A stretch of DNA of 64,000 bases from an uncultured Gemmatimonadales bacterium (GTDB lineage: Bacteria > Gemmatimonadota > Gemmatimonadetes > Longimicrobiales > RSA9): NCBI GenBank assembly GCA_963741945.1, contig CAVUKA010000001.1:1-64000 (forward strand), read 5' to 3'. Under the pieces are notes generated by a model that did no database searches, was not told the origin of the DNA, and saw nothing but the letters and a program-made list of their open reading frames with translations. Below, in pieces: positions 46,965 to 63,360 of this stretch. The translations under genes and the position numbers were made by a program. Within the stretch, counting starts at the first letter, position 1, and the number at the start of each line of letters is the position of its first letter.

Positions 46965-49508
46965 TCAGCGCCCGACCATGCCCCGCATGCCACCGCTCAC
47001 GAGCGTGGCGACATTGGTGAGGACGCGAGGAAGCGCAAGACCGCCGGGGGAGGCGATGTAGCGGGGCTCCCAGACCGGACCGAACTTCTCCTTGTACTCG
47101 CGCAGCCCTTCGAAGTTGTAGAACTGCTCGCCGTGGTGGAACAGCGCGGCCCCGAGGCGTGCCCAGAGCGGTGCCAGGTGACGGTCCTCGAGTCCGGCGA
47201 GCGGCGCCATTCCGAGGCTGAACCATTCGAAGCCCGTCTTCTGTCCCCAGAGCAGGAGCTGGACGAACAGGAACTCCATGGTGCTGGGCGGGGCGCCTGC
47301 GGCATAGCGCATGAGGTCGACCGACAGCTCGTGGCGGTCCGCGCCCTGGAGGACGTTGGCGAACGCGACGATCTCGGAATCGACCTCCACGACGGCCACG
47401 TTGGTGGCCTGCAGGTACTCGGGCTGGAAGAAGCCGAGGGAAAAGCCTTTCTCCCGGGTGGCCTTGCCCTCGAGCCAGTCGTCGGAGATCGCGCGGAGCC
47501 GCGGCAGGACCGAGGGCACCTCGTCGGGCGGGAGGACGCGGAAGGCGCCCCCCCTCTCCTCCATCTTGCGGACGGTATAGCGCATCCCCTTGCGCCGCCC
47601 TCCCTCGAGGGAGAAGGAGGCGAGTGGAACGCGAGCCTCCTCGCCGATCTTGGTGAGCGCGAGTCCGAGGTCGATGTAGAGCGGCAGGTGCCCGGGCTCG
47701 ACCTGATAGAAGACGGGGTAGTCGCCGTGGCGATGCGCCTGCTCCAGGAACTGCCAGGCCAGCTCGCGCGCGGCCGGCGCGGGTCCGACGGGGTCGCCCA
47801 TGGCCACCCAGCTCCGGCCTTCCACGCCGTACATGACGAACGCGGTCCGATGGTCGTCGAACAGGAAGTGCTTGTCCCCGAGCAGGGCGAGCTGGGCATA
47901 GGCCCGTGGCGAAGCGCGAGCGATGCGGGTGGCCGTGTCCACGTCATCGGGGAGCGGGAGCAGCGCCGCCGGCCGCGCGGGGGTCAACAGCCTGGCGAGC
48001 GCGAACGTGCCCACGGCCGTGAGCGTGCCGACGGTGGCGCGAAGGAAGCGGGGTGCGTCGGCATCGCGGGCGAACCTCCACCAGAGCGCGTCGGTGTAGA
48101 CCACGTTCTTGTAGGCGAGGAGCCCGAGCCCGACCGTGGCGATGAGAGCGCCCACCACTGCGGCGGCCCAGGTGGCCGTGAACGGCTCTGCCATGAGCGA
48201 AGCGCGGCGATAGAACTCGCCCCGGCTGGCCACCAGGGCAGCGGTCGTGATGGCCAGAAAGATGGCCTCCTCGTAGTCCAGCCCCTTCAGGAGCGTGAAC
48301 ACGATCCCGGTGACCATCAGCGTCACCGCGAGGTGGTAGGCCGCGTCGAGCCGGCGCTGGATGCCCCAGGCCAGGACGAGCAGCCCGCCACCGGCCACGC
48401 TGGCAAGGAAGTGGGACGCCTCGATGAGTCCGAGCGGGAACACGTCGTTCAGCCAGCGCAGCCGTCCACCCATGGCGGGCGTGGAGCCTGAAAACAGGAG
48501 CACCAGCCCCGCCACGAAAGTGGCAATGGCCATGGCCTGCGGCACGACCACGGCCAGACCGCGGCCGACCACGCCCGCGGCGCGACCGATCTCCCGCCTC
48601 CGTCGTCCGGCTTCGAAAGCGCCGAGGGCTGCGACGGCGGCCAGGAGGGGCAGGAGGTAGTAGACGGCACGGTACACGAGGAGGGAGCCGAGGAGCGCGC
48701 CGTGCCCGATGTCGTCCGGAAGGAGCGTGAGGATCACGGCCTCGAAGACGCCGAGCCCTCCGGGCACGTGGCTGACGAGGCCAGCCACCTGCGCCAGGAG
48801 GAAGATCCCCAGGAAGCCGGGGTAGCTGAGGCCCGTGTGGGGAGGGAGGATCACGAAGAGAACGGCGGCGGCGGCCGCCCAGTCCGCCATGGAGACCACC
48901 AGCTGCGCCAGGGTCAGCGCGGGGCCGGGCGGCGAGATGCGCCATCCTCCCACCTGCATCCCGCCGCGTCCCCACACGCCCCAGAGGACGTACGCGGCAG
49001 CGAGGAGTGCGAAGACGATGCCGAGGGGGCGGGTGGGGAGGCCGAGCAGGCGCGGCAGGTGGACGGGCGAGAGGAACAGGGCCACGCCGCCGAGCGCCAG
49101 GAATCCGATCCAGAACGAGGCCGTGTAGAAGGCGACCAGGTCACGGATGCGGGCGGCTTCGACCTCCCAGGCGGTGTAGAGGCGGTAGCGGACGGGAGCC
49201 CCGGTGAGCAGCGGGAATCCGAGGGCATTGCTGAAGGCGTAGCCGATGAACGACGCGAGCGCGGTGCGGGCGTAGCGGAGCGGGTGCCCCGCGTAGCGGA
49301 GGCCGAGGGCGTCGTAGGTGCTCAGGATGAGGAAGCTTCCGATGGTGAGCAGGACCGCGAGCACCACGTGGCCGGCGGGGAGCGCGGCCACGGCCGTGCG
49401 GACCTCCGACCACCGGAACTCCCGCATCTCGTGATGGATGGCCAGGACCGCGACGACCAGGAACGGGAGCGCCAGCAGCGGTTCGAAACGCTTCCACCAC
49501 GACTTCAC
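46965..49508 (-). CDS. mprF: MprF-type flippase / aminoacyl-lipid synthase (DUF2156)
   Basis: About 14 TM helices with 'VPGGLGVFE'; soluble domain 'MGDPVG', 'KIGEEA', 'EKGFSLG', 'VDLMRY', 'YNFEGLREYKEKF'. Confidence 0.92.
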   Translation of the reverse strand: MKSWWKRFEPLLALPFLVVAVLAIHHEMREFRWSEVRTAVAALPAGHVVLAVLLTIGSFLILSTYDALGLRYAGHPLRYARTALASFIGYAFSNALGFPLLTGAPVRYRLYTAWEVEAARIRDLVAFYTASFWIGFLALGGVALFLSPVHLPRLLGLPTRPLGIVFALLAAAYVLWGVWGRGGMQVGGWRISPPGPALTLAQLVVSMADWAAAAAVLFVILPPHTGLSYPGFLGIFLLAQVAGLVSHVPGGLGVFEAVILTLLPDDIGHGALLGSLLVYRAVYYLLPLLAAVAALGAFEAGRRRREIGRAAGVVGRGLAVVVPQAMAIATFVAGLVLLFSGSTPAMGGRLRWLNDVFPLGLIEASHFLASVAGGGLLVLAWGIQRRLDAAYHLAVTLMVTGIVFTLLKGLDYEEAIFLAITTAALVASRGEFYRRASLMAEPFTATWAAAVVGALIATVGLGLLAYKNVVYTDALWWRFARDADAPRFLRATVGTLTAVGTFALARLLTPARPAALLPLPDDVDTATRIARASPRAYAQLALLGDKHFLFDDHRTAFVMYGVEGRSWVAMGDPVGPAPAARELAWQFLEQAHRHGDYPVFYQVEPGHLPLYIDLGLALTKIGEEARVPLASFSLEGGRRKGMRYTVRKMEERGGAFRVLPPDEVPSVLPRLRAISDDWLEGKATREKGFSLGFFQPEYLQATNVAVVEVDSEIVAFANVLQGADRHELSVDLMRYAAGAPPSTMEFLFVQLLLWGQKTGFEWFSLGMAPLAGLEDRHLAPLWARLGAALFHHGEQFYNFEGLREYKEKFGPVWEPRYIASPGGLALPRVLTNVATLVSGGMRGMVGR

Positions 49509-49568
49509 GGATCACGCCTCCGGTGTGGGATCAGGAGGGCCCCAATATGCGCAAGCGACGCGGCCGCG

Positions 49569-50885
49569 TCATCCCTGCCGGCCTGGCCGTCGCGAGCCGC
49601 GGCCTCCCACCTCACGCCAGACAGGGAGCAGGTCCTCCCGGACCACGTCCGCCCAGGTGGGCCAGATGCGCTCGATCCGCCGGCGGGCCGCAGCCCCGGC
49701 CGCCGCGCGGCGCGCTTCGTCCACGAGGAGCGGGCGCAACGCGGCCTCCCATGCTTCCACGGTGTCCTCCTCGACGATCACGCCCGCCGCCACCACGCCG
49801 ACCCGACCGGCACCGGCCACCCGCTCGGCGCAGGACGTCCCGGCCGCGACCACTGCCGGAAGACCGGAAGACAGCGCCTCGATGACCACGTTGCCGACCG
49901 TCTCGGAGCGGGATGGGAAGGCGAAGACATCGGCCGCGGAATACAGTTCGGCGAGGGCCTGCTGCGTGAGCACACCGAGGCACGACACGTCGCTTCCGAG
50001 CAGCGCTTCCAGGTCGGGCACCCGGGTTCCTTCTCCGGCCACCACGAAGTGAACCGAAACGCCCGTGTCCCGCAGCCGCCGGACCGCGCGGCCGGCCAGC
50101 ATCACGCCCTTGCTGTCGTCCACACGCCCCGCGAACAGGACCAGGGGAGAATCGGGGAGGCCATGGCGCTCGCGCACGGCCGCGGTGGCATGCGGGCGGG
50201 GTTGGAACCGGTCCCGGTTGACGCCCCGGCGAAGGCGGCGGATGCGGTCGGCCGGCACCACGTCCGCCGCCCAGCGGCGGTCGCGCGCATTGGACACGTA
50301 GATGATGCGGCTGTCGCGCATGATCCTCTCCACCCCCCGCCGCGTCGCGCGCGCCGCACGCTCGTGCAGCCGCAACCGGTCGAGGGCGAGATGGTCCAGC
50401 CGCAGGCGACCCGCGAGGCCATGCCCCAGGGCCCGGGTGATGATCCGCCGGGCATACACGCGAGTGAAGCGCGGGAGGTGCGTGTGCAGGGAGAAGACCA
50501 GGGGCAGCCCGGTGCGTGAGGCAATGCGGCGGGCCGTCCGTCCGAACGCGAAGGAATCGGTGGCATGGAGAACGTCGTGGCTCGGGAGGGCGCGCGCGAG
50601 GGCGGCGTGGTGCGGTGCGAGGTCCGTGTCCCCCGCGCCCTGCCTCAGGAGCGCGAATCGGTTGGTGCCGAGCCGGGGCGGGAGCGTGATGTAGCGGGTG
50701 GAGGGCCCGAGCGGCTCGGTGTCTTCGTGGTCGCCCAGGAAGTAGACGGTGAGGTCCAGCCCGGGCTCATCCACGGCCGCTTCGGCGAACCGCTCCCAGC
50801 ACTTGACGTGCCCGCCCGCCTCGGGTCCCCGCTGCAGCGTCACGAGCACCCCCACGGAAATGGGCAAGGGGGCGCGGGTGTTCAC
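49569..50885 (-). CDS. Glycosyltransferase family 4 (GT-B)
   Basis: 'RGVNRDRF.P', 'FAGRVDDSKG', 'FPSRSETVGNVVIEALSSGLP'; GTG start overlaps the squalene synthase stop. Confidence 0.88.
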   Translation of the reverse strand: MNTRAPLPISVGVLVTLQRGPEAGGHVKCWERFAEAAVDEPGLDLTVYFLGDHEDTEPLGPSTRYITLPPRLGTNRFALLRQGAGDTDLAPHHAALARALPSHDVLHATDSFAFGRTARRIASRTGLPLVFSLHTHLPRFTRVYARRIITRALGHGLAGRLRLDHLALDRLRLHERAARATRRGVERIMRDSRIIYVSNARDRRWAADVVPADRIRRLRRGVNRDRFQPRPHATAAVRERHGLPDSPLVLFAGRVDDSKGVMLAGRAVRRLRDTGVSVHFVVAGEGTRVPDLEALLGSDVSCLGVLTQQALAELYSAADVFAFPSRSETVGNVVIEALSSGLPAVVAAGTSCAERVAGAGRVGVVAAGVIVEEDTVEAWEAALRPLLVDEARRAAAGAAARRRIERIWPTWADVVREDLLPVWREVGGRGSRRPGRQG

Positions 50886-51838
50886 GCGGGGCGGAAGGCC
50901 GGCGCGTCGTCCTGCTGGAGGCGGATGACGGGCCGTCCGAGGCGGAGGTCTGCCTTGAGACGCGCCATGATGGCCCACACCCTGGTGCGCGAGATCTTGC
51001 TTCCCGGTCCGTCCTCCTCCACACGGTCGAGCGTAGCCATCGCCAGGAGCACTGGCAGGGCATTGAAGGCCACGATCCCATCGGCGGCGCCGGCGGCCTG
51101 GAGAGCCAGCGTGTACTCGGCCGCCTGCCGGAGGTCGCCGCGCGCGAGCCTGAACAGCTCACCCCGCGCCACGGACTCCGGGACCAGGGCCCTGCCCTCG
51201 CGTACGTCCGCGGAGGCGTCCCGGAGCACGTTCACCAGCTGGAGCGCTTCACCGAACGCGCGCGCCCTGCGCCGGAGCCTGGGTCCGAGGCCATCATCGG
51301 CGCAATCGAGCAGGAAGAGCTCGGTCAGCATCTCGCCGACGATGCCCGCCACGGCGTAGCAGTACGCGCGCAGCTCCTCGAGATCGCGCAGGCGCAGGAC
51401 GCCATCGGCGTCGGCGCGCCGAAGGAAGGAGGCCATGCCGCGGCACGTGCGGACCGTGTGGCTCGCGATGATGTGGGCGGCATCCTCCCGCGTCTCCGCG
51501 AGCGCTTCGAAAACGATGGGGGCTTCCCGGAGCAGGTGCAGGTAGCCGTCGTGCTCCACGGGCGCGTTCTCGCTCCATGCGCGGGCGAGCGCCCGCATGC
51601 GGAGCGGCCCCGCATCCGTTTCCAGGGCGCGGGCCATCCGCTCGAGAGCATCGATCCGCTCCTGGACGGGCCACCGGGTGGAGTCCTCGAACGTATCGGC
51701 GATGCGGAAGAGAAGGTACGCTTCCGTGACTTCGGTACAGAGAGGGTCGGGAAGCAGCGGGATCGCCAGTGCGAACGTGCGACTGGTCTCCTCCAGGAGC
51801 GACTGCAGCTGCTCGGCGCGGGGGGTTGCAGTGTTCAT
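50882..51838 (-). CDS. Squalene synthase (single-enzyme type; squalene/phytoene synthase family)
   Basis: 'SRTFALAI', 'YLLFRIADTFED', 'YCYAVAGIVG', 'LQLVNVLRD'. Confidence 0.82.
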   Translation of the reverse strand: MNTATPRAEQLQSLLEETSRTFALAIPLLPDPLCTEVTEAYLLFRIADTFEDSTRWPVQERIDALERMARALETDAGPLRMRALARAWSENAPVEHDGYLHLLREAPIVFEALAETREDAAHIIASHTVRTCRGMASFLRRADADGVLRLRDLEELRAYCYAVAGIVGEMLTELFLLDCADDGLGPRLRRRARAFGEALQLVNVLRDASADVREGRALVPESVARGELFRLARGDLRQAAEYTLALQAAGAADGIVAFNALPVLLAMATLDRVEEDGPGSKISRTRVWAIMARLKADLRLGRPVIRLQQDDAPAFRPA

Positions 51839-51863
51839 GGCTCTCCCGGTGCACGGAACGTTG

Positions 51864-52688
51864 TCATGGCACCACGATCGTGCCGGACACGGGGGCACCC
51901 GCCAGGAGGCGGTCCAGTACACCCGGCGCGGCGCCCTGGCCGATCCACGACGGGATGCCGGCGCGGGCGAGGCCCAGGGCCGCATCCACACGGTGCCGCA
52001 TGCCTCCCGTCACATCCGGCGCGTCCGCGCCGCCAGCCGCCTGGAGCAGGAGATCGGCGTCCCCTACGGGGATCCGCTCCAGGACATCACCCTGCTGCGA
52101 CAGGACGCCGGCCGTGGCTCCGAGCCAGAGACAGCGACGAACGTGCCAGCCGGCCGCGCTCAGGGAGTCGGCCACAGCCCCCAGCGCCGTCTCGGTGGAG
52201 CAGATCGAGGCGCCCCGGACCCGGTCCAGCACGACATCGCCGTAGACAACGGGCATGAAGCCCCGCTCGAGAGCCATGCGAACGGTTCCGTCGTGGAAAT
52301 GCTCGATCCGTCCGTCCGAGGCCACAGCGATGGCCGAGGGCGGGATGGAGAAGGGCGCAGCGCCAGCCGAGAGCAGCGAATCCACCACGATCCTGTGGAG
52401 CTCGGCCGCCGCTCGCTGCACGCGGGCGACGTCGGCGGGGAGCGCCGGGGTGTCTCCGGGGCCGCCCTCGAGACCGCGAAGTCCGGCGTGCACGGCTTGC
52501 GGGTGCCCGAACGACCCGCTGCCGTGCCCCACCACGAGATGGTGCCCCGCGTCCCGGGCGCGGGCCAGCTGTTCGGCAAGGCGCCGGATGACGGCCGGGC
52601 GTGGCGTGCCCGGCGTCCGCTTGTCGGTGATCAGGCTGCCACCGAGCTTGACCAGGATGAGGTCCCGATCCACGTCTCCCCCCGTCAC
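51864..52688 (-). CDS. Isopentenyl phosphate kinase (amino-acid kinase family)
   Basis: 'KLGGSLITDK', 'HGSGSFGH' with the IPK signature His, 'DVTGGM'. Alternative GTG start at 52673. Confidence 0.88.
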   Translation of the reverse strand: MTGGDVDRDLILVKLGGSLITDKRTPGTPRPAVIRRLAEQLARARDAGHHLVVGHGSGSFGHPQAVHAGLRGLEGGPGDTPALPADVARVQRAAAELHRIVVDSLLSAGAAPFSIPPSAIAVASDGRIEHFHDGTVRMALERGFMPVVYGDVVLDRVRGASICSTETALGAVADSLSAAGWHVRRCLWLGATAGVLSQQGDVLERIPVGDADLLLQAAGGADAPDVTGGMRHRVDAALGLARAGIPSWIGQGAAPGVLDRLLAGAPVSGTIVVP

Positions 52689-53716
52689 AACAGGTGCTCC
52701 ACGGAGCCGGCGGGACCCTCGCCGACACGATCGCGGATGACGCGCTGCACACCCGCCACCCCCGCGAGACGGCGAGCCACGACGTCCTCCGCGTCCTGCT
52801 CGCAGAGAACGTGCACGTTCGGCCCCGCGTCCAGCGTGCTGAACGCGGGGACGCCATCGCGGCGGAGCGCCTCGACAGCTTCGAGCACGGCTACCGTGGC
52901 CGGACGCCAGTAGCGGATCGGTGGCCGCGAGGACATGGCAATGAGGTGGAGGTCCATCGCCTCCTCTTCCAGCATTTCGCCCAGCTGCGGGAAATCGCGC
53001 TGCCGGATGGCGTCGCGCACGCGAGACAGCCGACCATCCAGGAGCGCGAGGCGACGCTCAAAGTAGGGGCTGGTGAACGCGCGGCGGTGACCCTCGCGGG
53101 ATGAGACTTTCTTGGGCGCCGGATCGGCGATCGCGATCACGTCGGAGATTGCCCAGTGCGACGCGGGGGCCAGCAGCTCCAGCTCGGTGGCGCCCTGCGC
53201 GGACCCCGGCCGCCATTCCACGAAGCCGCCGACGACCGATCGGGCGGCGGAGCCGGAGCCGGAGGCGCGGGCCAGATCCGAGAGCCGGTCGGTATCCAGG
53301 TCCAGTCCGAATGCCTGCGTCGCCGCGTGCGTCACGGCGGCGAAGATCGCCGATGACGACGCCAGGCCGGCGGCCACCGGGAAGTCCACCCCTACGGCCA
53401 CGTCCGCCCCGCCCGCCCCGCCCGCGCGCTCCACGATGCCCCGGACGTGGGCGGCCACGGGGTCGCGCAGCGGGGGCGGGGCGTCGGTGAGCGGGTTTGC
53501 GCTGGATCGCCGGTGGCGGAAGATGCGAATGGATCCCCCCTGGCGGGGGCGCACCGTGCAGGTGGCGGTGCATTCGGTCAGCGTCATGGAGATGGACGGA
53601 TTGAGCGGCAGCCCTGCCCCGGGATCCCGTGATCCCCAGTACTTGATGAGCGCAATGTTGGCGGGAGCGGTCCACGTCGACACCTGGAGTGCGGGGCGTG
53701 CGCTCACGCCGCTCAT
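52685..53716 (-). CDS. mvaD: Mevalonate (di)phosphate decarboxylase, probably monophosphate-specific
   Basis: 'NIALIKYWG', 'AAGLASSS', 'GSGSAARS', 'DAGPNVH'. Confidence 0.85.
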   Translation of the reverse strand: MSGVSARPALQVSTWTAPANIALIKYWGSRDPGAGLPLNPSISMTLTECTATCTVRPRQGGSIRIFRHRRSSANPLTDAPPPLRDPVAAHVRGIVERAGGAGGADVAVGVDFPVAAGLASSSAIFAAVTHAATQAFGLDLDTDRLSDLARASGSGSAARSVVGGFVEWRPGSAQGATELELLAPASHWAISDVIAIADPAPKKVSSREGHRRAFTSPYFERRLALLDGRLSRVRDAIRQRDFPQLGEMLEEEAMDLHLIAMSSRPPIRYWRPATVAVLEAVEALRRDGVPAFSTLDAGPNVHVLCEQDAEDVVARRLAGVAGVQRVIRDRVGEGPAGSVEHLL

Positions 53717-54825
53717 GCGACCTCCAGCCCGGGGCCCCCGAACGCGGCATCGACCGGCCTGATGTCGCGCAGGAAGTCCCAGCCGGCAATGCGCCGCGGG
53801 TCCTCATGATGCACGAGGATCATCCCCGCCCCCAGGGCGCCATCGGTTCCGTCGCACAGGCCGCCCGCGCCGGAGACCTTGGCCGCGCCACCCTCGGCCT
53901 CGACCCGCCGGATGATTCGGGTGGCCGCGGGCGGGACCACACCCAGCGCTTCGAGGGCCGACTCGAACGACCTGACGGCCGCGCCCACGGCGGCCGGGTC
54001 GTGGCCCGTGGCGAGGCCGTTCGCGAATCCGCGGGCCAGCTCACCCATTCGCTCGAGCTCGGCCTCGAGCCCGCGGTCCGCTTCAAGGCGACGGCGGACC
54101 GCCGCCACCACCTCACCCGTCCCGTGCGCCGGGCAGCCGCTGTCGTACGCCCGGAAGTGGGCGAGAGCGCGCGGGTCCGCGGCCAGGGGGCGGAAGCGCA
54201 GCCTGGCCCCCGGCTCCGCCGCCTCGGCGCGAATGACGCCGCCCCGGAGGACCGTCGCCCCATCGATCCCGGAAGGCGACCCGTGCTGCCGCCGCTCGAC
54301 CTCATGCGCCGCCGCTTCGAGGTCGGACGAGGGCGGATCCACACCGGCGGCGGCGCACACCGCGGCGATCAGGGAGAGGGCCAGCGCGGCGGAGCTGCCC
54401 ATGCCGTGGCCCACGGGGATATCGCTGTCCACCAGCACCTCCAGCGGCGGCGGGGTCCGCCCGAGGAGGTCGACGGCCGTCCCCAACGCGACCAGGGCGA
54501 GGTAGTGCCCGTCGCCCGCGCTCCGGGCGTCGCCCGGACCAGCCTCTCCGGCGGTGCGCGCCGCCTCCGTCCAGGTGAGCGTGACCGGGCGTCCACCGGG
54601 CAGCCTCAGGACCAGGACCGCCTCGGCCGCGGCCGTCGCACTGGCGATGGGCCTGGCGCGAACGCGCAGGCGGCGCTGCACGGCGGCGGCCACGGCCGGG
54701 TGGCCGTAGACCACCGAATGCTCGCCCATGAGGATGAGCTTGCCTGGCGCGGACGCGGAGGCGTCGCGCGGGACGCCGGTGAGGCCAACCGGGTCGCGAC
54801 CGGACGCGGTCACCGGAGCGGTCAT
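53713..54825 (-). CDS. mvk: Mevalonate kinase
   Basis: 'APGKLILMGEHSVVYG', 'PVGHGMGSSAA', 'HGSPSGID', 'AKVSGAG'. Confidence 0.9.
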   Translation of the reverse strand: MTAPVTASGRDPVGLTGVPRDASASAPGKLILMGEHSVVYGHPAVAAAVQRRLRVRARPIASATAAAEAVLVLRLPGGRPVTLTWTEAARTAGEAGPGDARSAGDGHYLALVALGTAVDLLGRTPPPLEVLVDSDIPVGHGMGSSAALALSLIAAVCAAAGVDPPSSDLEAAAHEVERRQHGSPSGIDGATVLRGGVIRAEAAEPGARLRFRPLAADPRALAHFRAYDSGCPAHGTGEVVAAVRRRLEADRGLEAELERMGELARGFANGLATGHDPAAVGAAVRSFESALEALGVVPPAATRIIRRVEAEGGAAKVSGAGGLCDGTDGALGAGMILVHHEDPRRIAGWDFLRDIRPVDAAFGGPGLEVA

Positions 54826-54826
54826 C

Positions 54827-56185
54827 TCATCCGGCCAATTCCGCTTCCGCGGCCGTGCCCGCCCTGCCCAGGCGCTCGTGCGCCCTCGCCAGGTCGCGAG
54901 ACGTGAGGGCGGCCAGCAGCGAGAGCTCGCCCGCCAGGACGGTGGCGCCCAGCGCTTCGGCGAGCCGGAGCGCTCCGACTCCTGGATTGTCAGGATCGGG
55001 CAGAGCGCCGATCAGGGCGAGGGCCTCGTTCTGCGTGGCCAGCCCGGTGCCACCACCCACCACGCCCACGGGGGCATCGGGCATGGAGATGGACACATAG
55101 ACGGCATCGTCGCCGCGCGGCTCGATGCACGTGATCCCCAGCGCGGCTTCGGCCACCTGCGCGGGGTCCTGCCCCGTGGCAATGAACAGCGCGGCCGCCA
55201 GATTGGCGTAATGGGCGTTGAAGCCGAGGGAGCCGGCGGCCGCGGAGCCCAGCAGGTTCTTGCGATACTGCACCTCGACCAGCGGCGCGGCGCTCGTCTT
55301 CAGGTAGCGCTGCAGGATCTCGCCGCTCAGGACCACTTCGGCGAAAATCCGTTTCCCCCGTCCTTCCCGGGCGTTGATGGCGGACGGCTTCTTGTCCACG
55401 CCGTAGTTCCCGGACAGAGAAACGCACTCGGCGCCCGTGGCGGGCTCGATGAGCTCGGTCACGATCCGATCCGTGGCGATTGTGGCCATGTTCATCCCCA
55501 TGGCATCGGCCGTGGAGAAGCGGAAGCGGAGAAAGAGAGAGCTGCCCACGGCCTGGGAGCGCACATCCAGGAGTTGGATGTAGCGGCTGTCGCGCTCCGC
55601 CACCGCGCGCATCTCTTCGAGGTGGGACTCCACCCATGCTTCCACCCGGCGTGTGTGCTCGATGCCGTGGGTCCGGAACACGGGGGCCCGGGTCATGCCG
55701 ACGTCCTCGACCTCCACGGTGGCTCCGCCCGCGGCGCGGATCGCGGCGCAACCGCGGTTGGTGCTGGCGAGGAGGGCCCCTTCGGTGGTGGCGAGGGGGA
55801 CGAAGAGCGGCTCGCCGCGGCCGCGGATCGGCAGCGGCCCGACCACGCCCACGGGCACCTGCGCGACGCCCACGAAGTTCTCGCAGTTGTACCTGGCCGC
55901 GCGCTCGGCATCGAGGCTGTAGTGGCCCGTGTGGTCGAGCCTCACGCCCGTCATCCGGGTGAGAGCCTGACGGCGCAGATCGGCGGCGGTGGCGGCATCC
56001 ACGGTATCGGGGAGCCGGTGGAGCGCCCGCTTGCCTGTCGCCATGTCGTGGACGAGCGCTTCCTCGGCGGGGTGCCGCCTTTCCGGGCGGCGGCCGTTTC
56101 CATTGCCGTTGCCGTTTCCGTTTCCTGAGCCGTTGCGCAGGTGCGCCTCGGGCGGAGTCTTCGATACGGGAGTCCGTCGCTTCAT
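54827..56185 (-). CDS. hmgA: HMG-CoA reductase, class I (NADPH)
   Basis: 'CENFVG', 'PLATTEGALLAS', 'DAMGMNM', 'SGNY..DKKPSAIN', 'GELSLLAAL..LARAH'. Confidence 0.92.
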   Translation of the reverse strand: MKRRTPVSKTPPEAHLRNGSGNGNGNGNGNGRRPERRHPAEEALVHDMATGKRALHRLPDTVDAATAADLRRQALTRMTGVRLDHTGHYSLDAERAARYNCENFVGVAQVPVGVVGPLPIRGRGEPLFVPLATTEGALLASTNRGCAAIRAAGGATVEVEDVGMTRAPVFRTHGIEHTRRVEAWVESHLEEMRAVAERDSRYIQLLDVRSQAVGSSLFLRFRFSTADAMGMNMATIATDRIVTELIEPATGAECVSLSGNYGVDKKPSAINAREGRGKRIFAEVVLSGEILQRYLKTSAAPLVEVQYRKNLLGSAAAGSLGFNAHYANLAAALFIATGQDPAQVAEAALGITCIEPRGDDAVYVSISMPDAPVGVVGGGTGLATQNEALALIGALPDPDNPGVGALRLAEALGATVLAGELSLLAALTSRDLARAHERLGRAGTAAEAELAG

Positions 56186-57219
56186 GGCTGTACTTCCTTC
56201 CGGATGGCAATTCGGCTCAGTGCGCCCAGGTCCCCGGCGCCGCTGCAAAGCATGGCTACACGCAATTCCTGCACGATACGGCGGATCCGGTCTTCCACGG
56301 CGGCCGCGGACTCCCGGGCAGGTCCCAGGAACGGCTGGGCGAGTCCGGCGAGGGAAGCGCCCAGGGCCACGGCCTTGGCCACGTCAATGCCAGTGCGCAC
56401 ACCGCCACTGCCGATCACCGTGAGGCCCTCGATGGCGGCCACCTGTCGGATGGCGTCGGGCGTGGGAATTCCCCAGCCGGCGAAGCGCTCCCCGAGCTCC
56501 GCGTCGGGCGCGCGCCGGCTCTCGATGCGCGCCCAGCTGGTGCCGCCGAGACCGGCCACGTCCACGACAGTGACGCCCGCCTGCTGGAGCCGGGCCGCGA
56601 CGGGGCCGGAGATGCCGCAGCCGATCTCCTTGGCGATCACCGGGACATCGAGTCCGTCCACGACCTCGGCGATGCGGTCCAGGAGCCCGGTAAAATCCGT
56701 GTCTCCCTCGGGCTGGATCGCTTCCTGTAGGACATTCAGGTGGAGCACGAGGGCGTCCGCGCCGATCATCTCCACGGCCGCGCGGCACTCGTCCACGCCG
56801 TAGCCGTGGTTGAGCTGGACGGCGCCGAGGTTGGCGAGCAGCGGCACGTCCGGCGCCACGGCCCGGACCTGGAACGTCCACGCGAGCGATGGGTCCTCCA
56901 CGGCGGCGCGCTGGGAGCCCACGCCCATGGCAACGCCAGCGGCCTGGGCGGCGGCGGCCAGGTTGCGGTTGATCGAGCCGGCCTCCTCGGTGCCGCCGGT
57001 CATGCACGAGATCACCAGAGGGGCACGCAGAGGTCGACCGAGGAAGGTGGTGCTCGTGTCCACCCCGTTCAGCGCCAGGTCGGGCAGCGCGTCGTGCTCC
57101 AGCCGCCACTGGTCGAAGTAATGGGTCCCCAGCTGATTCCGTCCATCCTGCGCGAGGCGGAGATGCTCCGCCTTCCGCTGCGATGTCGCGGGCTGGAGGT
57201 CCTGCTCCACAGTACTCAT
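56182..57219 (-). CDS. fni: Type 2 isopentenyl-diphosphate isomerase (FMN)
   Basis: 'RKAEHL', 'MTGG', 'GVGSQR', 'HLNVLQE..QPEGD', 'GGTSW'. Confidence 0.93.
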   Translation of the reverse strand: MSTVEQDLQPATSQRKAEHLRLAQDGRNQLGTHYFDQWRLEHDALPDLALNGVDTSTTFLGRPLRAPLVISCMTGGTEEAGSINRNLAAAAQAAGVAMGVGSQRAAVEDPSLAWTFQVRAVAPDVPLLANLGAVQLNHGYGVDECRAAVEMIGADALVLHLNVLQEAIQPEGDTDFTGLLDRIAEVVDGLDVPVIAKEIGCGISGPVAARLQQAGVTVVDVAGLGGTSWARIESRRAPDAELGERFAGWGIPTPDAIRQVAAIEGLTVIGSGGVRTGIDVAKAVALGASLAGLAQPFLGPARESAAAVEDRIRRIVQELRVAMLCSGAGDLGALSRIAIRKEVQP

Positions 57220-57950
57220 GCTCGCTTTCCGCTCAGGCTTTCTTCTGTCCCGACAGCCGGTGCGGCTGCCGCAACGATCTTCGGGATGGCTCTGGCCAGC
57301 GCCCGGCCCCCGGCGCGGGCCCGGCGCGCCAGTCCCAGGAGTGCCGGGATGCGGCCGGGGTGACGCAGGGCGCCGAAGGCCACCGCGGACCGGGAAACCG
57401 CCCCATCCCCACCCTGCGGGGCCTCCAGCCACACGGGGAGGTAGTCATCCACCCCGTCGCTCACCGCCCGCACGGCCAGCCATGGTACACCCTCACCCTC
57501 CGCCGCGTCCACACACGCGGCGGTCTCCAGGTCCACCAACCCCGTAGCGGCGACAGGGATCCCCACGAGCCGGCGCATACGGTCCCGCTCCAGCGGCGTC
57601 CGCGCAAGACCGGTGGCGCTGACCAGAATGGCGTCGGCGAAGCCGGCGCGCCGCGCCCGGTCCAGGATCTCCGCTTCTGGCCGCCGAACGGGCCCGGCCA
57701 CGCGCCGGAGCTCACGGACCACCCGCACCTCCCCGGCGGCCACGGTCCGGGTAAGAGCGCCGGCCAACCCCGCCACCACGAGCAGTCGCGGCCGGTGCTC
57801 GGACAGCAGCCGGCGAGTGCTCGCGGCGGCGGCCCCCGCCCCGTCGCCCGTGGTCGCGACCACGATGTCCCGGTTCGCGCGGAGGGCCCGGCGCACGGGC
57901 CGGGCTTCCTCCGGCAGGGCGGTCACCACGAGCACCGGTCCCGGGGTCAT
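57216..57950 (-). CDS. hpnG: HpnG-like adenosylhopane nucleosidase (PNP/UDP family)
   Basis: 'TALPEEA', 'AGLAGAL', 'VDLETAA', 'VRAVSD'; position in the hpn cluster. Confidence 0.75.
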   Translation of the reverse strand: MTPGPVLVVTALPEEARPVRRALRANRDIVVATTGDGAGAAAASTRRLLSEHRPRLLVVAGLAGALTRTVAAGEVRVVRELRRVAGPVRRPEAEILDRARRAGFADAILVSATGLARTPLERDRMRRLVGIPVAATGLVDLETAACVDAAEGEGVPWLAVRAVSDGVDDYLPVWLEAPQGGDGAVSRSAVAFGALRHPGRIPALLGLARRARAGGRALARAIPKIVAAAAPAVGTEESLSGKRA

Positions 57951-58942
57951 GACGCATACCCCCGCTCCCGGAACCACTGGACCGCCCGCGCGGCGGCATC
58001 CTCCACCGGGTGCTGCGGCAATCCCAGCTCCCGCACGGCGCGGCTCGCGTCGAAGTACATGGGAAGCGCGGACATGCGCACCGCCTCCGCGGTGAGGCGT
58101 GGCTCCCGGCCGCGCACATTCGCCAGGGCGGTCTCGGCGTGGGCGGCCATGAGCGGCATCCAGCGCGGCACTCGCACCCGCGGCGGCTCGAGGCCGGCCA
58201 CCCGGGCCAGCATGGCGAACAGTTCCCGGAACGTGAAGTTGCGCGCGCCCAGAATGTAGCGGCGTCCGGGCGCGCCGTGCTCCTCGGCGAGAATGTGGCC
58301 AGCGGCAACATCCTTCACGTCCACCACATTCAGCCCACCTTCGACGTACGCGGGAATGCGGCCGTTGAGGAAGTCCACCACCATCCTGCCGGTGGGCGTC
58401 GGCTTGGCGTCCCACTCCCCGATCGGCGTGGACGGCGAGACGATGACCACGGGCAGGCCGCGGCGGTTCCAGGCCTCGGCAACCCGCTCCGCCTGGTACT
58501 TGCTCCGCTTGTACGCACCGACGAGCTCGTCGGGATCGGGAAGCGATTCCTCGTCGGCGGGCGACGCGGGCGTCTCGCCTCCCGCGAGCGCGCCCACGGA
58601 GCTCGTGTACACGACGCGCTTCACGCCGGCATCCGCGGCAGCCGCGAGCAGGGCGGCGGTCCCGTCCACGTTGGTGCGGAACACCTCGCGGGCGAGATGC
58701 GCGCCGAAGCGGTAGTCGGCGGCGCAGTGGAAGACGGTGCGCGCCCCGCTCACCGCCGGCGGCAGCGTCTCCGGGCGCGTGAGGTCGCCCTCGACCAGCT
58801 TGACGGGGAGCCCTTCCAGCGCCTCGCGGCTGCTGCCCGGGCGCACCAGGCAGCGCACCGGGTCGCCGCGGTCGACGAGCGCTCGCACCACGTGGGTTCC
58901 GATGAACCCTGTGCCGCCGGTTACGAAGACTGGGGCGGTCAC
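57947..58942 (-). CDS. hpnA: Hopanoid-associated NAD-dependent epimerase/dehydratase
   Basis: 'VTGGTGFIG', 'FHCAADYR', 'YKRSK', 'KPTPTGR'. Confidence 0.88.
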   Translation of the reverse strand: MTAPVFVTGGTGFIGTHVVRALVDRGDPVRCLVRPGSSREALEGLPVKLVEGDLTRPETLPPAVSGARTVFHCAADYRFGAHLAREVFRTNVDGTAALLAAAADAGVKRVVYTSSVGALAGGETPASPADEESLPDPDELVGAYKRSKYQAERVAEAWNRRGLPVVIVSPSTPIGEWDAKPTPTGRMVVDFLNGRIPAYVEGGLNVVDVKDVAAGHILAEEHGAPGRRYILGARNFTFRELFAMLARVAGLEPPRVRVPRWMPLMAAHAETALANVRGREPRLTAEAVRMSALPMYFDASRAVRELGLPQHPVEDAAARAVQWFRERGYAS

Positions 58943-58948
58943 GTCGGC

Positions 58949-59950
58949 TCAAGCAGAGATCTGCCAGAGCGCCATCCTGGCGATGTCACGAGGGCTCCTG
59001 GACACCTCGCGCACGGCGGACGCTTCGAAGCCCGAGTGCATCTTGCAGTTCTGGCACCGGCGGTCCTGTCGCGACTCCCAGTACTCCCAGTCGGTGTTGT
59101 TCCAGAACTCGTCGAAATCGTCGTAGTAGTCCTGCCCGATCAGGTAGCAGGGCGCCTTCCAGCCGCGCGGCGTGTAGGTCACCGTGCTCCACGGCGAGCA
59201 GTCCAGGTCACGCAGGCCGGCGGCGAACTCCATGAAGACGGGCGTGGAGGTGATGGGGTAGCGATCGGCGAACTCGCGCACGCGCTTGAACTTCTCCTCG
59301 ATCTCCTGCCGCGTCATGAAGACGTCCTTCTCCACCGATTCGTAATGGTAACCCGGTGCGATCATCATCCCGTCCACGCCAAGGCTCGTGCACAGCTCGC
59401 AGAGCTCCTCGACCTCATCCACGTCCGTCTGCTTGTAGATCGTGGTGTTGGTCAACGTGTGATAGCCGCGCGCCTTGGACTCCTTGATCATCTCGATGGC
59501 ATGATCGAACACGCCTTCCCGATCCGTCACGAAGTCGTGGGTCTTCCGCATCCCGTCCAGGTGGATATCAATGCTCAGCCGCTTGTTGGGCGGGATCTTG
59601 TCGAAGACCTTGTCCAGCCGCAGCGCGTTCGTGCACAGGAAGATGTGTCGCTTCCGGTCGATGATGCCCTCGATCAGCTCCGGCAGCTCAGGATAGAGCG
59701 TGGGCTCGCCGCCGATCACGGAGACCGCAGGCGCGCCGCTGTCGTCCACAGCCTTCAGCGCCCGGTCCACGGACATGCGATCGGAAAGCTTGCCCGTGTG
59801 CCGCTCGAGGGCACACCCCACACACGCGAGATTGCAGGTGTAGAGCGGTTCGAGCATCAGCACGGATGGATAGCGCTTGTTCCTCTTCAGCGCATTGGAC
59901 ATCTGGTGCTTGATGTTGTCGGCGATCATGTGAGGCGGAAATCGCATCAT
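58949..59950 (-). CDS. hpnH: Adenosyl-hopene transferase, radical SAM
   Basis: 'YPSVLMLEPLYTCNLACVGC', 'FLCTNAL', 'PCYL', 'DRRCQNCKMHSGFE'. Confidence 0.9.
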   Translation of the reverse strand: MMRFPPHMIADNIKHQMSNALKRNKRYPSVLMLEPLYTCNLACVGCALERHTGKLSDRMSVDRALKAVDDSGAPAVSVIGGEPTLYPELPELIEGIIDRKRHIFLCTNALRLDKVFDKIPPNKRLSIDIHLDGMRKTHDFVTDREGVFDHAIEMIKESKARGYHTLTNTTIYKQTDVDEVEELCELCTSLGVDGMMIAPGYHYESVEKDVFMTRQEIEEKFKRVREFADRYPITSTPVFMEFAAGLRDLDCSPWSTVTYTPRGWKAPCYLIGQDYYDDFDEFWNNTDWEYWESRQDRRCQNCKMHSGFEASAVREVSRSPRDIARMALWQISA

Positions 59951-62025
59951 CGGTACTCCTCGGGTTCAACGGATGCCCACCGGGCGAGCGCCAGCAGGGG
60001 GAAATAGTCGTCGTACATGTGGTACTGCAGGTAAAAGACCTTCGGGAACCCGGTCGCGGTCCACGGCTCGTCGTGCCACGATCCGTCCTCGCGCTGTGTG
60101 CGCAGCAGGTAGGCCAGCCCGGCGCGCGCGGAAGCGGAGCCACGGTCTCCGGCGGCGTGCAGCGCCAGGAGCGCCCAGGCGGTCTGTGCGGCGGTGCTGG
60201 GTCCCACACCCCGCCTGCTCCGGTCCCAGTAGGAGGCCTGCGTCTCACCCCAGCCCCCGTCCTCGTTCTGCCGCTCCCGGAACCAGCACCGGCAGCGCGC
60301 CACCGGGCCTGTCTCCACGTCCTCGCCGGCCGCGGCCAGGCCGGTCAGGGCCAGCCAGCTGCCGTAGATGCGGTTGCACCCCCAGCGTCCGTACCAGGTG
60401 CCATCGCTGTCCTGGCGGTCCAGGATGAACGAGACCGCGCGACGGATCACCGGGTGCTGCGGATCCATCCCGTTCGTCACGAGCATGTCGATGATCCGGC
60501 CGGTGATATCGACCGAGCTCGGGTCGAGCATGGCGTTGTGGTCCGCGAAGGGGACGTGGACGAGGGGGCGGAAATCGCAACTGCGGTCGAACGCGCCCCA
60601 CCCCCCGTCGTCGTTCTGCATGGTCAAAAGCCATTCCAGCCCACGGCGGCGGGCGGCGCTGATCCGGTGGACGTCCCCCACCCCGGCCTGATCGAGAGGG
60701 CGGAGCGCTTCCAGCACCTCAGCGGTGTCATCACAATCAGGGTAGAACTCGTTGGCGTACTCGAAATACCATCCGCCGACGGGTCCATCGGGATTGCCGT
60801 AGCGCCAGTCACCGGCGGCCGTCACCTCCCGGTCCAGGAGCCACTCGCTGGCGCGAAGGAGCGCGGGATGGTCCGGCCGGACGCCCGCGGCGCTGAGGGC
60901 GGCCATCGTCTGGGCGGTGTCCCAGACGGGCGAAAGTGATGGCTGCAGCTGGAGCGTGTCGCCGTGGTCGACCTCCAGCTTCTCCATGGCCGCGTGCTGG
61001 GCGGCCAGTGCCGGGTGGTCATCGTCGTAGCCGAGGCAGCGCATGGCCATGATGACATTGGCAATGGACGGGAAGACGGCGCCGAGTCCGTCCGTGCCCT
61101 CGATCCGCTCCAGCATCCAGCTCTCCGCGGCGTCCAGCGCCCTCTGCCGCAGGGGCGTGAAGCGAGCCCGCTCGATCCTTCGAAGGCCCGCGTCCGCCGC
61201 CCGGAAGAACACGCCCCACGCGCGGGCACCGACGCCGAAGTCGGCGTGGATGTCCACGGCCGCGTCGTCGCCATCGGGGTCGTCCGGGTGGGACGGCACG
61301 GTGTCGAGCGCCGGTTCGGCGCCGCCGGTGCGGATGTCGTGGAGCTCCGCGGCGGCCGGGATCGCCACGCGCGGCCGGAACGCCCAGATCACGGAAAGAG
61401 GGACGAAGATGGAGCGGCTCCAGGACGACATCCGGTCCACGTGGAAGGGGAACCAGCGCGGCAGGAGCATCATCTCCGGAGGGATGGCGGGACAGCGATC
61501 CCAGTCCCACTGCCCGAACATGGCCAGGTAGACGTGCGTGTACGTGTTGGCCGCCGGAATCCCGCCCAGCGCCCGGATGACCCCGCGAGCCGTGCGCATG
61601 TGCGGGGCGTCCGGATCCTCACCCTCCAGCTTGAGCGCGAAGTACGCCTTGATGGACGCGCTCACGTCCGGTGGACCGCCGGGGTACATCGCCCAGCCAC
61701 CGTCCTCGGTCTGGAGTCCGCGCAGGCGACGCACCGCCTTCCGGGCCTTCGGTCCACCCCCGCGCCCCAGGAAGTGCTGCATCAGCACGTACTCGGACTC
61801 GAGGATGCTGTCCCCCTCCAGAACGCCGCACCAGTGTCCGTCCGGCTGCTGCTCGCGCAGCAGGTTGTCCCGCGCCCGGCCCACCGCGCTCTCGATCGCG
61901 TCCGCTGCGTCAGTGCCGGCGCGGCTCGCCGTCGCGACCCCGGTCCGCGGCATGGACCACGCGCGGGATCGCTCGACGCCGCCCGGGCGTTCAGTCCGAG
62001 TCTTCTGCACCCGGCGTGAAGCCAT
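59947..62025 (-). CDS. shc: Squalene-hopene cyclase
   Basis: 'YPDCDDTAEV' (DxDD), several QW repeats, 'FADHNAMLDP', 'TGFPKVFYL.Y'. Confidence 0.93.
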   Translation of the reverse strand: MASRRVQKTRTERPGGVERSRAWSMPRTGVATASRAGTDAADAIESAVGRARDNLLREQQPDGHWCGVLEGDSILESEYVLMQHFLGRGGGPKARKAVRRLRGLQTEDGGWAMYPGGPPDVSASIKAYFALKLEGEDPDAPHMRTARGVIRALGGIPAANTYTHVYLAMFGQWDWDRCPAIPPEMMLLPRWFPFHVDRMSSWSRSIFVPLSVIWAFRPRVAIPAAAELHDIRTGGAEPALDTVPSHPDDPDGDDAAVDIHADFGVGARAWGVFFRAADAGLRRIERARFTPLRQRALDAAESWMLERIEGTDGLGAVFPSIANVIMAMRCLGYDDDHPALAAQHAAMEKLEVDHGDTLQLQPSLSPVWDTAQTMAALSAAGVRPDHPALLRASEWLLDREVTAAGDWRYGNPDGPVGGWYFEYANEFYPDCDDTAEVLEALRPLDQAGVGDVHRISAARRRGLEWLLTMQNDDGGWGAFDRSCDFRPLVHVPFADHNAMLDPSSVDITGRIIDMLVTNGMDPQHPVIRRAVSFILDRQDSDGTWYGRWGCNRIYGSWLALTGLAAAGEDVETGPVARCRCWFRERQNEDGGWGETQASYWDRSRRGVGPSTAAQTAWALLALHAAGDRGSASARAGLAYLLRTQREDGSWHDEPWTATGFPKVFYLQYHMYDDYFPLLALARWASVEPEEYR

Positions 62026-62130
62026 GGATCCTCGTCTTTCCGCCTGGAGATCCGCTGATGGCAACTGGTCCTTCGTTCCTGGCCGGCCCCGTCGGCCGGC
62101 TCCACCGGCTCCCAGGGCTCGGCCGACTCC

Positions 62131-62170
62131 AAAAAAAAACGGCGTCCGCGTGGAACACGCCCAGACGCCG
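62131..62170 (-). terminator. Intrinsic terminator (hairpin + U9) upstream of shc
   Basis: CGGCGTC...GACGCCG followed by TTTTTTTTT on the minus strand. Confidence 0.75.
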
Positions 62171-62294
62171 GGGATCGCGGCGCGCCGCCCGTGGGGGGCT
62201 GTCGCGATTTCTGTCACTTCGGAGGCGTGTCAATGCAAGCAGCACGCCAGAAGGCCCTGCCTCGGGACGCGCCCGGATGGATCGGCCTTACCAG

Positions 62295-62651
62295 TCAGGA
62301 CGCGGTCGCCGGGACGAGCACCTGCCACTCCTGGTCGCCGATGGGGAAGAGGAGCTGGTCATAGGGCATGGTTGCGTCCGCGGGCGCGTAGAGCTGCATG
62401 CCTTCGAACTGGCCCACGGGCACGACACTGGGCTGGTGCACGGGCGCTCCCGACGGCAACCACTGGCGGCCGTTGAACTCGACCATCCTCCCCTGCTGCA
62501 CCCACTGGAGCGTGTCGGGGTCGTACGTCTTCACGGCTTCCCCACCGACGGTGGCGTCCGTCGGCCGGGTGTCGCCAGCCTGCTCACGATCACACCCCAC
62601 AACCGCCAGGGCCGTGAGCCCGAGTGCCAGCACACTGGACGTTCGCATCAT
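62295..62651 (-). CDS. Hypothetical small lipoprotein
   Basis: GGAGG RBS; lipobox VVGC. Confidence 0.7.
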   Translation of the reverse strand: MMRTSSVLALGLTALAVVGCDREQAGDTRPTDATVGGEAVKTYDPDTLQWVQQGRMVEFNGRQWLPSGAPVHQPSVVPVGQFEGMQLYAPADATMPYDQLLFPIGDQEWQVLVPATAS

Positions 62652-62740
62652 GTCTCCTCCCTGGAGTTTCGTCGGCGACGAACCCCGCGCAGCTTCCATA
62701 CCGCCGGGGCCGGTACGCTGCGAGGCGGGAGTCTGACGCT

Positions 62741-63229: not shown

Positions 63230-63360
63230 GCGGCGGAAGGTAGGCGGGCGCGGCGAGGGTCACAACGGACGTTGATCGCGCTCGCGGGGCCCGAGGCGGT
63301 CCCGGGGATCTGAGGGACCTCACTGGCGGCTCTCCCACACCCGCGGGGACCGCCGGCGGG

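Follow-up and report, generated by a model that had tools for sequence, protein, structure and literature searches.

We describe here a cluster of eleven genes combining hopanoid and mevalonate functions in a member of the Gemmatimonadota, located at positions 49569-62025, on the minus strand, of a 64-kb stretch of DNA from contig CAVUKA010000001.1. This whole stretch, called the window in what follows, stands at the start of a 1.41-Mb contig within an 8-contig, 4.09-Mb draft genome of 70% G+C (labelled G000), which is metagenome-assembled and has an estimated completeness of 96.7% and an estimated contamination of 2.17%. An earlier reading of the window, made from its sequence only, had proposed eleven co-directional genes at this place, and Pfam and NCBIfam matches bear it out: all eleven are found at these coordinates, each in the family named by that sequence-only reading. 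Along the minus strand the order is shc, hpnH, hpnA, an hpnG-like gene, fni, class I 3-hydroxy-3-methylglutaryl-CoA (HMG-CoA) reductase (HMGR), mevalonate kinase (MVK), a decarboxylase, isopentenyl phosphate kinase (IPK), squalene synthase (SQS) and a GT4 glycosyltransferase. The features are listed below, together with the gene that follows them; bit scores are given with the cut-off of the model in brackets.

59947..62025, minus strand: shc, squalene-hopene cyclase, 692 aa from the ATG at 62025 (the longest open reading frame extends to 62217); TIGR01507 636 bits (cut-off 431), both Pfam SQHop_cyclase domains.
58949..59950, minus strand: hpnH, radical-SAM adenosylhopane synthase; TIGR03470 355 bits (cut-off 225), Pfam Radical_SAM and DUF3463.
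57947..58942, minus strand: hpnA, hopanoid-associated NAD-dependent sugar epimerase/dehydratase-like protein; TIGR03466 418 bits (cut-off 368).
57216..57950, minus strand: HpnG-like nucleosidase/phosphorylase, 244 aa; best family TIGR03468 HpnG, 65 bits (cut-off 187), Pfam PNP_UDP_1.
56182..57219, minus strand: fni, type 2 isomerase that interconverts isopentenyl diphosphate (IPP) with dimethylallyl diphosphate (DMAPP); TIGR02151 383 bits (cut-off 281).
54827..56185, minus strand: class I (NADPH) HMGR, soluble form, 452 aa; Pfam HMG-CoA_red 381 bits, TIGR00533 428 bits (cut-off 442), class II TIGR00532 28 bits.
53713..54825, minus strand: MVK; best family TIGR00549, 149 bits (cut-off 163), with 29 and 21 bits for models of phosphomevalonate kinase (PMK).
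52685..53716, minus strand: MDD-family decarboxylase, read as a phosphomevalonate decarboxylase (PMD, also written MPD); TIGR01240 189 bits (cut-off 171), best solved relative 6n0x.
51864..52688, minus strand: IPK; NF040647 130 bits (cut-off 120).
50882..51838, minus strand: candidate single-enzyme (eukaryote-like) SQS, 318 aa; best family TIGR01559, 83.5 bits (cut-off 287).
49569..50885, minus strand: GT4 glycosyltransferase; Pfam Glycos_transf_1 and Glyco_transf_4.
46965..49508, minus strand: MprF, lysyl-phosphatidylglycerol synthase/flippase; NF033480 913 bits (cut-off 600).

The eleven genes probably constitute one operon that channels carbon from HMG-CoA, by way of MVK, PMD and IPK, into extended hopanoids. 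The tight packing reported earlier is confirmed at base level: with the likeliest starts, neighbouring genes share 4 bp (ATGA or GTGA) at seven of the ten junctions (shc/hpnH, hpnA/hpnG, hpnG/fni, fni/HMGR, MVK/decarboxylase, decarboxylase/IPK and SQS/GT4, that of hpnG and fni being an ATGA), and the remaining three are gaps of 6 bp (hpnH/hpnA), 1 bp (HMGR/MVK) and 25 bp (IPK/SQS). No terminator-like site was found on the minus strand within 49569-62025, and a hairpin with a T8 tail lies just upstream of shc, at 62158-62142. A sigma-70 scan of 46500-64000 gave no site against 0.6 expected by chance, and is uninformative as it is not tuned to Gemmatimonadota. A search of sequencing runs for the operon gave one DNA run, possibly from the source sample, and no RNA run. 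We infer that the eleven genes form a single co-transcribed unit, which the GT4 gene would join through its overlap with SQS. MprF, encoded 60 bp downstream of GT4 on the same strand, may close the unit.

The curated cut-offs are passed by the shc, hpnH, hpnA, fni, IPK and decarboxylase models, and HMGR falls just under its own. Two names given earlier had to be softened. HpnG is indeed the best-scoring family of the fourth gene, but the score is far enough from the cut-off that only 'HpnG-like' can be kept; a gene in this position is retained in relatives at 28-37% identity. Similarly, TIGR01559 is the family nearest to the predicted squalene synthase, although the match is far under the equivalog cut-off. 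This protein, a member of the SQS_PSY family, scores lower with HpnD (47 bits), HpnC (45 bits) and CrtB (31 bits), and its best matches in the PDB are solved eukaryote-type squalene synthases, HpnC, HpnD and CrtB/CrtM being more distant. Its sole paralogue in the genome, on contig C5, is 31% identical and adjoins a polyprenyl synthase.

For the decarboxylase, the best reading is a phosphomevalonate decarboxylase that most likely works like the haloarchaeal PMD. In comparison with the PDB its best match is 6n0x (226 bits), the phosphomevalonate decarboxylase of Anaerolinea thermophila (PMC9254496), while the best true diphosphomevalonate decarboxylase (DMD), that of Enterococcus (5v2l), reaches 155 bits. 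The authors of the 6n0z structure are reported to have turned PMD specificity into DMD specificity by mutagenesis (PMC9254496), and engineered 6n0z differs from wild-type 6n0x at two positions, N to K (in YWG-N) and H to M (in G-H). At these two positions the decarboxylase of the window carries Ser29 and His210, and the Enterococcus DMD carries Lys and Met; the catalytic Asp is retained. In the published comparisons, as far as the cited parts go, the lysine is invariant in DMDs and replaced in MPDs (Table 4 of Dellas 2013, PMC3857490), and a PMD-like motif is described in which the conserved lysine of DMDs is missing and the conserved histidine of PMDs is kept (Zhu et al. 2024, PMC11052028). 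We aligned the window protein with 40 homologues from loci with the same fni-HMGR-MVK-decarboxylase-IPK cassette (41 rows). In the column of the DMD lysine (DMD Lys21) the alignment holds 35 Ala, 2 Ser, 2 Ile, 1 Gly and one gap, with no Lys among 40 residues, and the PMD histidine and the catalytic aspartate are each present in 41 of 41 decarboxylases.

Several features of the same protein weigh against its reading as a PMD. It retains the DMD-type Ser-Arg pair (SSR), it passes the DMD equivalog TIGR01240 (189 against 171 bits), and it has a Gly where the PMDs of Chloroflexi have Arg or Thr. Moreover, it does not reach the haloarchaeal PMD equivalog NF040704 MvaD, with 128 bits against a cut-off of 475, and thus it is no orthologue of the haloarchaeal PMD clade.

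The presence of an IPK, claimed from the sequence alone, is upheld: the protein is a full member of family NF040647 and keeps the catalytic His62 (H60 in M. jannaschii numbering), which is found in all 41 rows. Residues K14, G16, G17, K23, P146, G150, D225, T227 and G228 are invariant in an IPK alignment, in agreement with the conserved list in the part of Dellas 2013 cited here (PMC3857490), and of the eight PDB matches seven, scoring up to 93 bits, are IPK-family chains from archaea, with FomA (35 bits) as the remaining one. The label 'archaeal-type' attached earlier to this pathway now designates a different route, with a dehydratase and a UbiD-type decarboxylase; the MDD-family gene found between those of MVK and IPK makes such a route unnecessary here. 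The succession of MVK, PMD and IPK is called 'haloarchaea-type' in the relevant passages of Aoki 2022 (PMC9254496), a term that we adopt. A search for homologues of this IPK retained 4561 proteins at E <= 0.001 among 8000 candidates scored, and 587 IPK places were confirmed in contigs of one genome per species; the locus counts given below refer to the best 80 of them. These belong mostly to Thermoanaerobaculia and other Acidobacteriota, and also to Gemmatimonadota, Chloroflexota, Candidate Phyla Radiation (CPR) bacteria and archaea. A decarboxylase homologue lies beside IPK in 52 of the 80 loci, and an SQS homologue lies downstream of IPK in 35.

The absence of a PMK from the operon, noted earlier, agrees with our search of the whole genome, in which no recognisable PMK was found. 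The Gram-positive PMK model TIGR01220 matched only the MVK gene (22 bits), and the archaeal PMK model NF040957 matched nothing. The five GHMP kinases of the genome (PF00288) are galK, a galactokinase-like protein, ispE, MVK and the decarboxylase, none of them a PMK. The animal-type PMK model PF04275 was blank in G000 and also in all 14 control genomes, and is hence uninformative. In the closed 7.05-Mb chromosome of an acidobacterium with the same cassette (G252, locus L028), the GHMP matches are galK, thrB, one unassigned kinase, MVK, the decarboxylase and one false match, again with no recognised PMK. As far as the predicted proteins tell, then, G000 has neither of the marks of the classical pathway, a PMK and a DMD with the conserved lysine. 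Two points count on the other side: the galactokinase-like kinase of G000 is matched to no function, and with a genome 96.7% complete the absence of PMK is not proven. The pathway could accordingly be imagined as classical, with a DMD, a cryptic or unassembled PMK, and an IPK that merely salvages isopentenyl phosphate. The TIGR01240 match and the Ser-Arg pair are what such a pathway would lead one to expect, one unassigned GHMP kinase in each of G000 and G252 offers it a candidate, and the incomplete genome and the silent controls of the animal-type search leave it some room. We nevertheless consider it very unlikely, since none of the 40 residues in the column of the DMD lysine is a lysine and the PMD histidine is kept in 41 of 41, the closest solved enzyme is a PMD, the genes of IPK and the decarboxylase share 4 bp and their homologues adjoin each other in 52 of the 80 loci, no PMK model rises above noise in G000, and the closed chromosome of G252 has no recognised PMK.

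The steps upstream of mevalonate, absent from the window, are encoded elsewhere in G000. A set of three genes at C1:1254427-1257090, at a distance of 1.2 Mb from the operon, comprises an archaeal-type HMG-CoA synthase (HMGS; TIGR00748, 502 bits, cut-off 353), a thiolase likewise of archaeal type and a DUF35 zinc-ribbon/OB protein, so that with the HMGR and MVK of the operon all upstream steps are encoded. Whether this trio belongs to the same pathway is less clear. In a sample of 251 Gemmatimonadota genomes, G000 included, archaeal-type HMGS passes its cut-off in 27 and HMGR was found in 29, and the two overlap only in G000 and G018. In most of the 27 genomes the HMGS-thiolase-DUF35 trio must have a role other than mevalonate synthesis. 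The rarity of this co-occurrence counts against our reading of the operon, as it means that the HMGS of G000 may serve another pathway; the trio may also not have arrived with the cassette. Three polyprenyl synthases were found in the genome and, as the sequence-only reading had noted for ispA, none is in the operon; one, ispA-like, lies directly upstream of dxs. This placement of farnesyl diphosphate (FPP) synthase outside the operon, with one copy beside dxs, likewise does not favour a self-contained hopanoid supply.

A search for dxr and ispG, suggested by the same reading, revealed the complete methylerythritol phosphate (MEP) pathway, with seven of seven genes: dxs (788 bits), dxr (424), ispD (237), ispF (196), ispG (390), ispH (235) and ispE. 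G000 is thus predicted to encode two complete routes to IPP. An origin of the MEP genes by contamination was weighed and dismissed: the 1.41-Mb contig of the operon itself carries ispD and ispG, and IspG shares 81-89% identity with Longimicrobiales/Gemmatimonadota proteins, which also fixes the host lineage. The presence of this second IPP pathway, in a metagenome-assembled draft with the contamination estimate given above, would be compatible with mevalonate genes that are a functionless decaying remnant or an assembly chimera. Such an origin is extremely improbable, given that all eleven frames are open and single-copy with conserved catalytic residues, that G+C is even over the region (0.67-0.73 against 0.70 for the genome), that the contig also carries ispD and ispG, and that the gene order is repeated in independent assemblies.

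The synteny check called for at the outset shows that the arrangement recurs in at least eight other public genomes from two phyla and is not unique to G000. All five cassette genes, fni-HMGR-MVK-decarboxylase-IPK, are found in 38 of the 80 loci (at a stricter coverage threshold), and hpnH adjoins the cassette in six (four Gemmatimonadota, one Thermoanaerobaculia and one Multivoradales). The cassette is frequent in Thermoanaerobaculia MAGs, where most loci comprise the cassette and SQS, with no hopanoid genes nearby. It is rare in the phylum sample: IPK passes its cut-off in three of the 251 genomes, namely G000, G179 from its family and G086 from its class, and shc in seven, these three and G084, G110, G144 and G159. 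G179 and G086 have the gene order of the window from shc through IPK. In G144 and G110 the series shc-hpnH-hpnA-hpnG-SQS is uninterrupted and mevalonate genes are absent, and G159 has shc-hpnH-hpnG-fni; Dxr is present in all three. The order in G144 and G110 shows that the five-gene cassette occupies exactly the hpnG-SQS junction. Furthermore, a 920-aa MMPL/RND protein with sterol-sensing-domain similarity (HpnN-like) is encoded downstream of IPK in loci L011, L014 (10842-13604), L016, L038 and L094, with a partial match in L017. In L011, L014, L016 and L038 it stands between IPK and SQS, so that these other Gemmatimonadota have hopanoid genes to either side of the cassette. A tblastn search of G000 with the L014 protein (E <= 1e-6) gave no HpnN-like transporter. 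In the acidobacterial chromosome of L028, a polyprenyl (FPP-type) synthase is encoded directly upstream of fni (L028:4124-5383), and the cassette there consequently spans every step from HMG-CoA to squalene.

The distribution of the MEP pathway among these genomes bears on what the cassette is for. G179 and G086 have neither Dxr nor IspH, and IspH is present in three cassette-less members of the window's family. Among five large acidobacterial cassette genomes, two lack Dxr (G251 and G252) and three have it. Over the eight cassette genomes tested, Dxr is therefore present in four (G000, G253, G254 and G255) and absent from four (G179, G086, G251 and G252); the state with both routes and the state without detectable MEP genes both occur. 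The same operon is apparently the sole IPP route in G179 and G086, which means that the cassette is not intrinsically hopanoid-specific, and in these two genomes and the two acidobacterial ones without Dxr it must feed all isoprenoids. Both facts speak against a dedicated hopanoid role. They are what one would expect of a general housekeeping IPP pathway inherited inside a hopanoid operon, redundant with MEP in G000, whether as a recent arrival by which MEP is not yet replaced or as an old resident next to an MEP pathway that was kept, and without preference for hopanoids. The cassette-SQS loci of Thermoanaerobaculia, with hopanoid genes not nearby, fit this view too, as does the even split of Dxr among the cassette genomes. 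We regard it as possible, if rather unlikely for G000, where translational coupling links the mevalonate genes to shc/hpnH on one side and SQS on the other, and where a full, native-looking MEP set is kept with an ispA-like gene beside dxs. As the cytoplasmic IPP pool is shared, this alternative differs from the operon reading in emphasis and not in chemistry.

No HMGS was found by the archaeal or the bacterial model in the four Dxr-less cassette genomes, G179 and G086 (L093, L094) and G251 and G252 (behind L012 and L028), of which one is a closed 7.05-Mb chromosome, and a search of 86 loci with the cassette or hopanoid genes gave no HMGS homologue. HMGS may have escaped detection in all four genomes; otherwise these bacteria would obtain HMG-CoA in another way. 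A speculative extension, which we consider doubtful, is that the block from shc to SQS is a portable, nearly self-sufficient hopanoid module with its own PMD/IPK mevalonate pathway, whose acquisition would allow loss of MEP. G000 would then be an intermediate, G179 and G086 the end state, and HMG-CoA in the four Dxr-less genomes would come from an unrecognised source, for example leucine catabolism or a non-homologous synthase.

The history of the cassette was approached with a concatenated tree of the five proteins (41 rows, quick search, unrooted). The window pairs with G179 with 99% support in the Shimodaira-Hasegawa-like approximate likelihood ratio test (SH-aLRT), and a second supported group, placed among Acidobacteriota, unites the remaining six Gemmatimonadota. 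Separate acquisition by these two cassette groups was considered; a tree constrained to hold the eight Gemmatimonadota together is not rejected (approximately unbiased test, p-AU 0.82), its likelihood being higher by 27.5 log units than that of the free search, and a single origin of the cassette within Gemmatimonadota is possible. In the IPK tree (83 rows, unrooted), a branch with 99% SH-aLRT sets Acidobacteriota, Gemmatimonadota, one Rhodothermota and one Schekmanbacteria apart from Chloroflexota, archaea, CPR and two metagenome-assembled genomes (MAGs) labelled Gammaproteobacteria. Because both trees are unrooted, no donor or direction of transfer can be named. The IPKs of these two MAGs (L068 and L071) group with CPR (Microgenomates) and not with other Proteobacteria, and L068 also has a thiolase and homologues of MVK and the decarboxylase at 25-32% identity; this placement could reflect mis-binning or transfer.

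In the operon reading that we favour, HMG-CoA would be supplied by the unlinked trio of archaeal-type HMGS, thiolase and DUF35 protein. HMGR would convert it to mevalonate and MVK would yield mevalonate 5-phosphate, from which the MDD-family enzyme, acting as a phosphomevalonate decarboxylase, would produce isopentenyl phosphate. IPK would then form IPP, and the type 2 isomerase would balance IPP and DMAPP. An FPP synthase encoded elsewhere would make FPP, the single-enzyme squalene synthase would turn it into squalene and the cyclase squalene into hopene, to which HpnH would add the adenosyl side chain, trimmed to ribosylhopane (C35 type) by the HpnG-like nucleosidase. With such a layout, hopanoid synthesis and an extra C5 supply fed by acetyl-CoA would be switched on together, and since the MEP pathway is intact in G000, hopanoid synthesis would gain a co-regulated C5 supply of its own. 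The 'dedicated precursor supply' proposed before our analysis is made possible, though not proven, by the complete MEP pathway beside it; the relatives without Dxr and IspH show that the cassette can serve the whole cell. In G000, IPP may be partitioned between hopanoids and housekeeping isoprenoids.

The end of the unit is less conserved. A GT4 homologue stands beside the cassette in none of the 86 related loci, so the GT4 gene is not a conserved part of the cluster, and MprF beside the cassette is not conserved in other loci either. The acceptor of the GT4 enzyme (49569-50885) could be a hopanoid, a glycolipid or a product made jointly with MprF. The operon has a membrane-lipid neighbourhood at 39373-49508, with a FakA-DegV fusion (39373-41169), MlaE, an ABC ATPase and MlaD (within 41740-45481, plus strand), a sensor histidine kinase (45478-47226) and MprF (46965-49508). 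On the operon's opposite side, at 62741-63229 on the minus strand, a 162-aa open reading frame contains only the N-terminal domain of an asparaginase (Pfam positions 2-163 of 193; type I model 4-152 of 337) and may be a truncated or frame-broken gene. Elsewhere on the contig, an open frame upstream of galK (locus L002, G000:C1:91777-95037; about C1:92575-92900) encodes 8-9 tandem copies of a 14-residue unit, RRTATASHAETRRA-like, which corresponds to a 42-bp tandem DNA repeat just 5' of galK.

The MEP pathway was reportedly discovered through hopanoids, by Rohmer and colleagues in the 1990s, and bacterial hopanoids are normally treated as MEP products. In G000, hopanoid synthesis appears to be wired instead to a 'decarboxylate first' mevalonate route. 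Acetate-derived and MEP-derived units differ, and the reading of carbon and hydrogen isotope signatures of sedimentary hopanes would be affected for this reason. Genome-scale pathway calls that require a PMK for the mevalonate pathway would be affected as well. Moreover, the separate large clade of the route in Acidobacteriota (Thermoanaerobaculia) and a few Gemmatimonadota bears on the evolution of isoprenoid pathways, and the two routes in one genome make a natural case for how two IPP supplies are divided.

Among bacteria, the MVK-PMD-IPK route is placed only in Chloroflexota in the passages cited from Hoshino and Gaucher, Aoki 2022 (PMC9254496) and Zhu et al. 2024 (PMC11052028), and the portion cited of a 2026 J Bacteriol review on dual-pathway bacteria makes no mention of IPK, Gemmatimonadota or Acidobacteriota (PMC13001223). 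A full-text search for literature on IPK in Acidobacteri*, or on mevalonate and isoprenoid biosynthesis in Gemmatimonad*, judged by title and abstract, returned nothing on topic. In print we found only a passing mention of the arrangement, the nearest precedent being the acidobacterial SD22 MAG in the part of PMC5462960 cited here. Enzymes and pathway are already known, whereas the host lineages, the separate clade of IPKs, the placement of this route within a hopanoid operon and its occurrence side by side with MEP are under-described.

Compared with the route of Roseiflexus castenholzii, Anaerolinea thermophila and Haloferax volcanii, as presented in the passages cited (PMC3857490, PMC9254496), the common elements are MVK, a lysine-less MDD-family decarboxylase, an IPK with its catalytic His, the type 2 isomerase, the lack of PMK, and an archaeal-type HMGS with thiolase. 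In contrast to that haloarchaea-type route, the host here belongs to the Gemmatimonadota and not to Chloroflexota or archaea, from whose IPKs those of Gemmatimonadota and Acidobacteriota are split as a group of their own, with 99% SH-aLRT. The HMGR here is of class I, whereas HMGR-II is listed among the enzymes of Chloroflexi (Hoshino and Gaucher). The five genes form one cassette here, with the decarboxylase beside IPK, while in the 16 Chloroflexota loci of the IPK tree the decarboxylase is beside IPK in none and an MVK homologue in eight; the Gly of the window decarboxylase, against Arg or Thr in Chloroflexi PMDs, is a further difference.

The 'Mor1' genome (the SD22 acidobacterial MAG) is described, in the part of its report cited here, as having no MEP genes and the majority of the mevalonate genes, besides shc, hpnH and a gene similar to squalene synthase, and its synthesis of bacteriohopanepolyols is said to run 'in a completely different way' (PMC5462960). 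'Mor1' thus lacks MEP, whereas G000 has both routes, and the cited text names neither an IPK nor the type of decarboxylase, nor a single operon (PMC5462960). By comparison with canonical hpn clusters, for example clusters B (ispA-shc-hpnH) and C (hpnA-hpnG) of Acidobacteria in the section cited from Sinninghe Damste 2017 (PMC5462960), the common feature is that shc, hpnH, hpnA and an hpnG-like gene stand together, here in the order of G144 and G110. Unlike in those clusters, a single candidate squalene synthase of eukaryote-like type takes the place of HpnC/D/E in the window, no MEP or ispA genes are in the cluster, five mevalonate genes stand between hpnG and SQS, and the genome yielded no HpnN-like transporter.

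In Streptomyces, mevalonate clusters are attached to terpenoid clusters and the MEP pathway is also kept. The likeness to G000 lies in a second, acetyl-CoA-fed IPP route that is linked to the genes of one isoprenoid product, with MEP kept for general use. The Streptomyces clusters contain the classical PMK and DMD, include HMGS and serve secondary metabolites, whereas the cluster described here would rely on PMD and IPK, with an unlinked HMGS, and its expected product is a membrane lipid.

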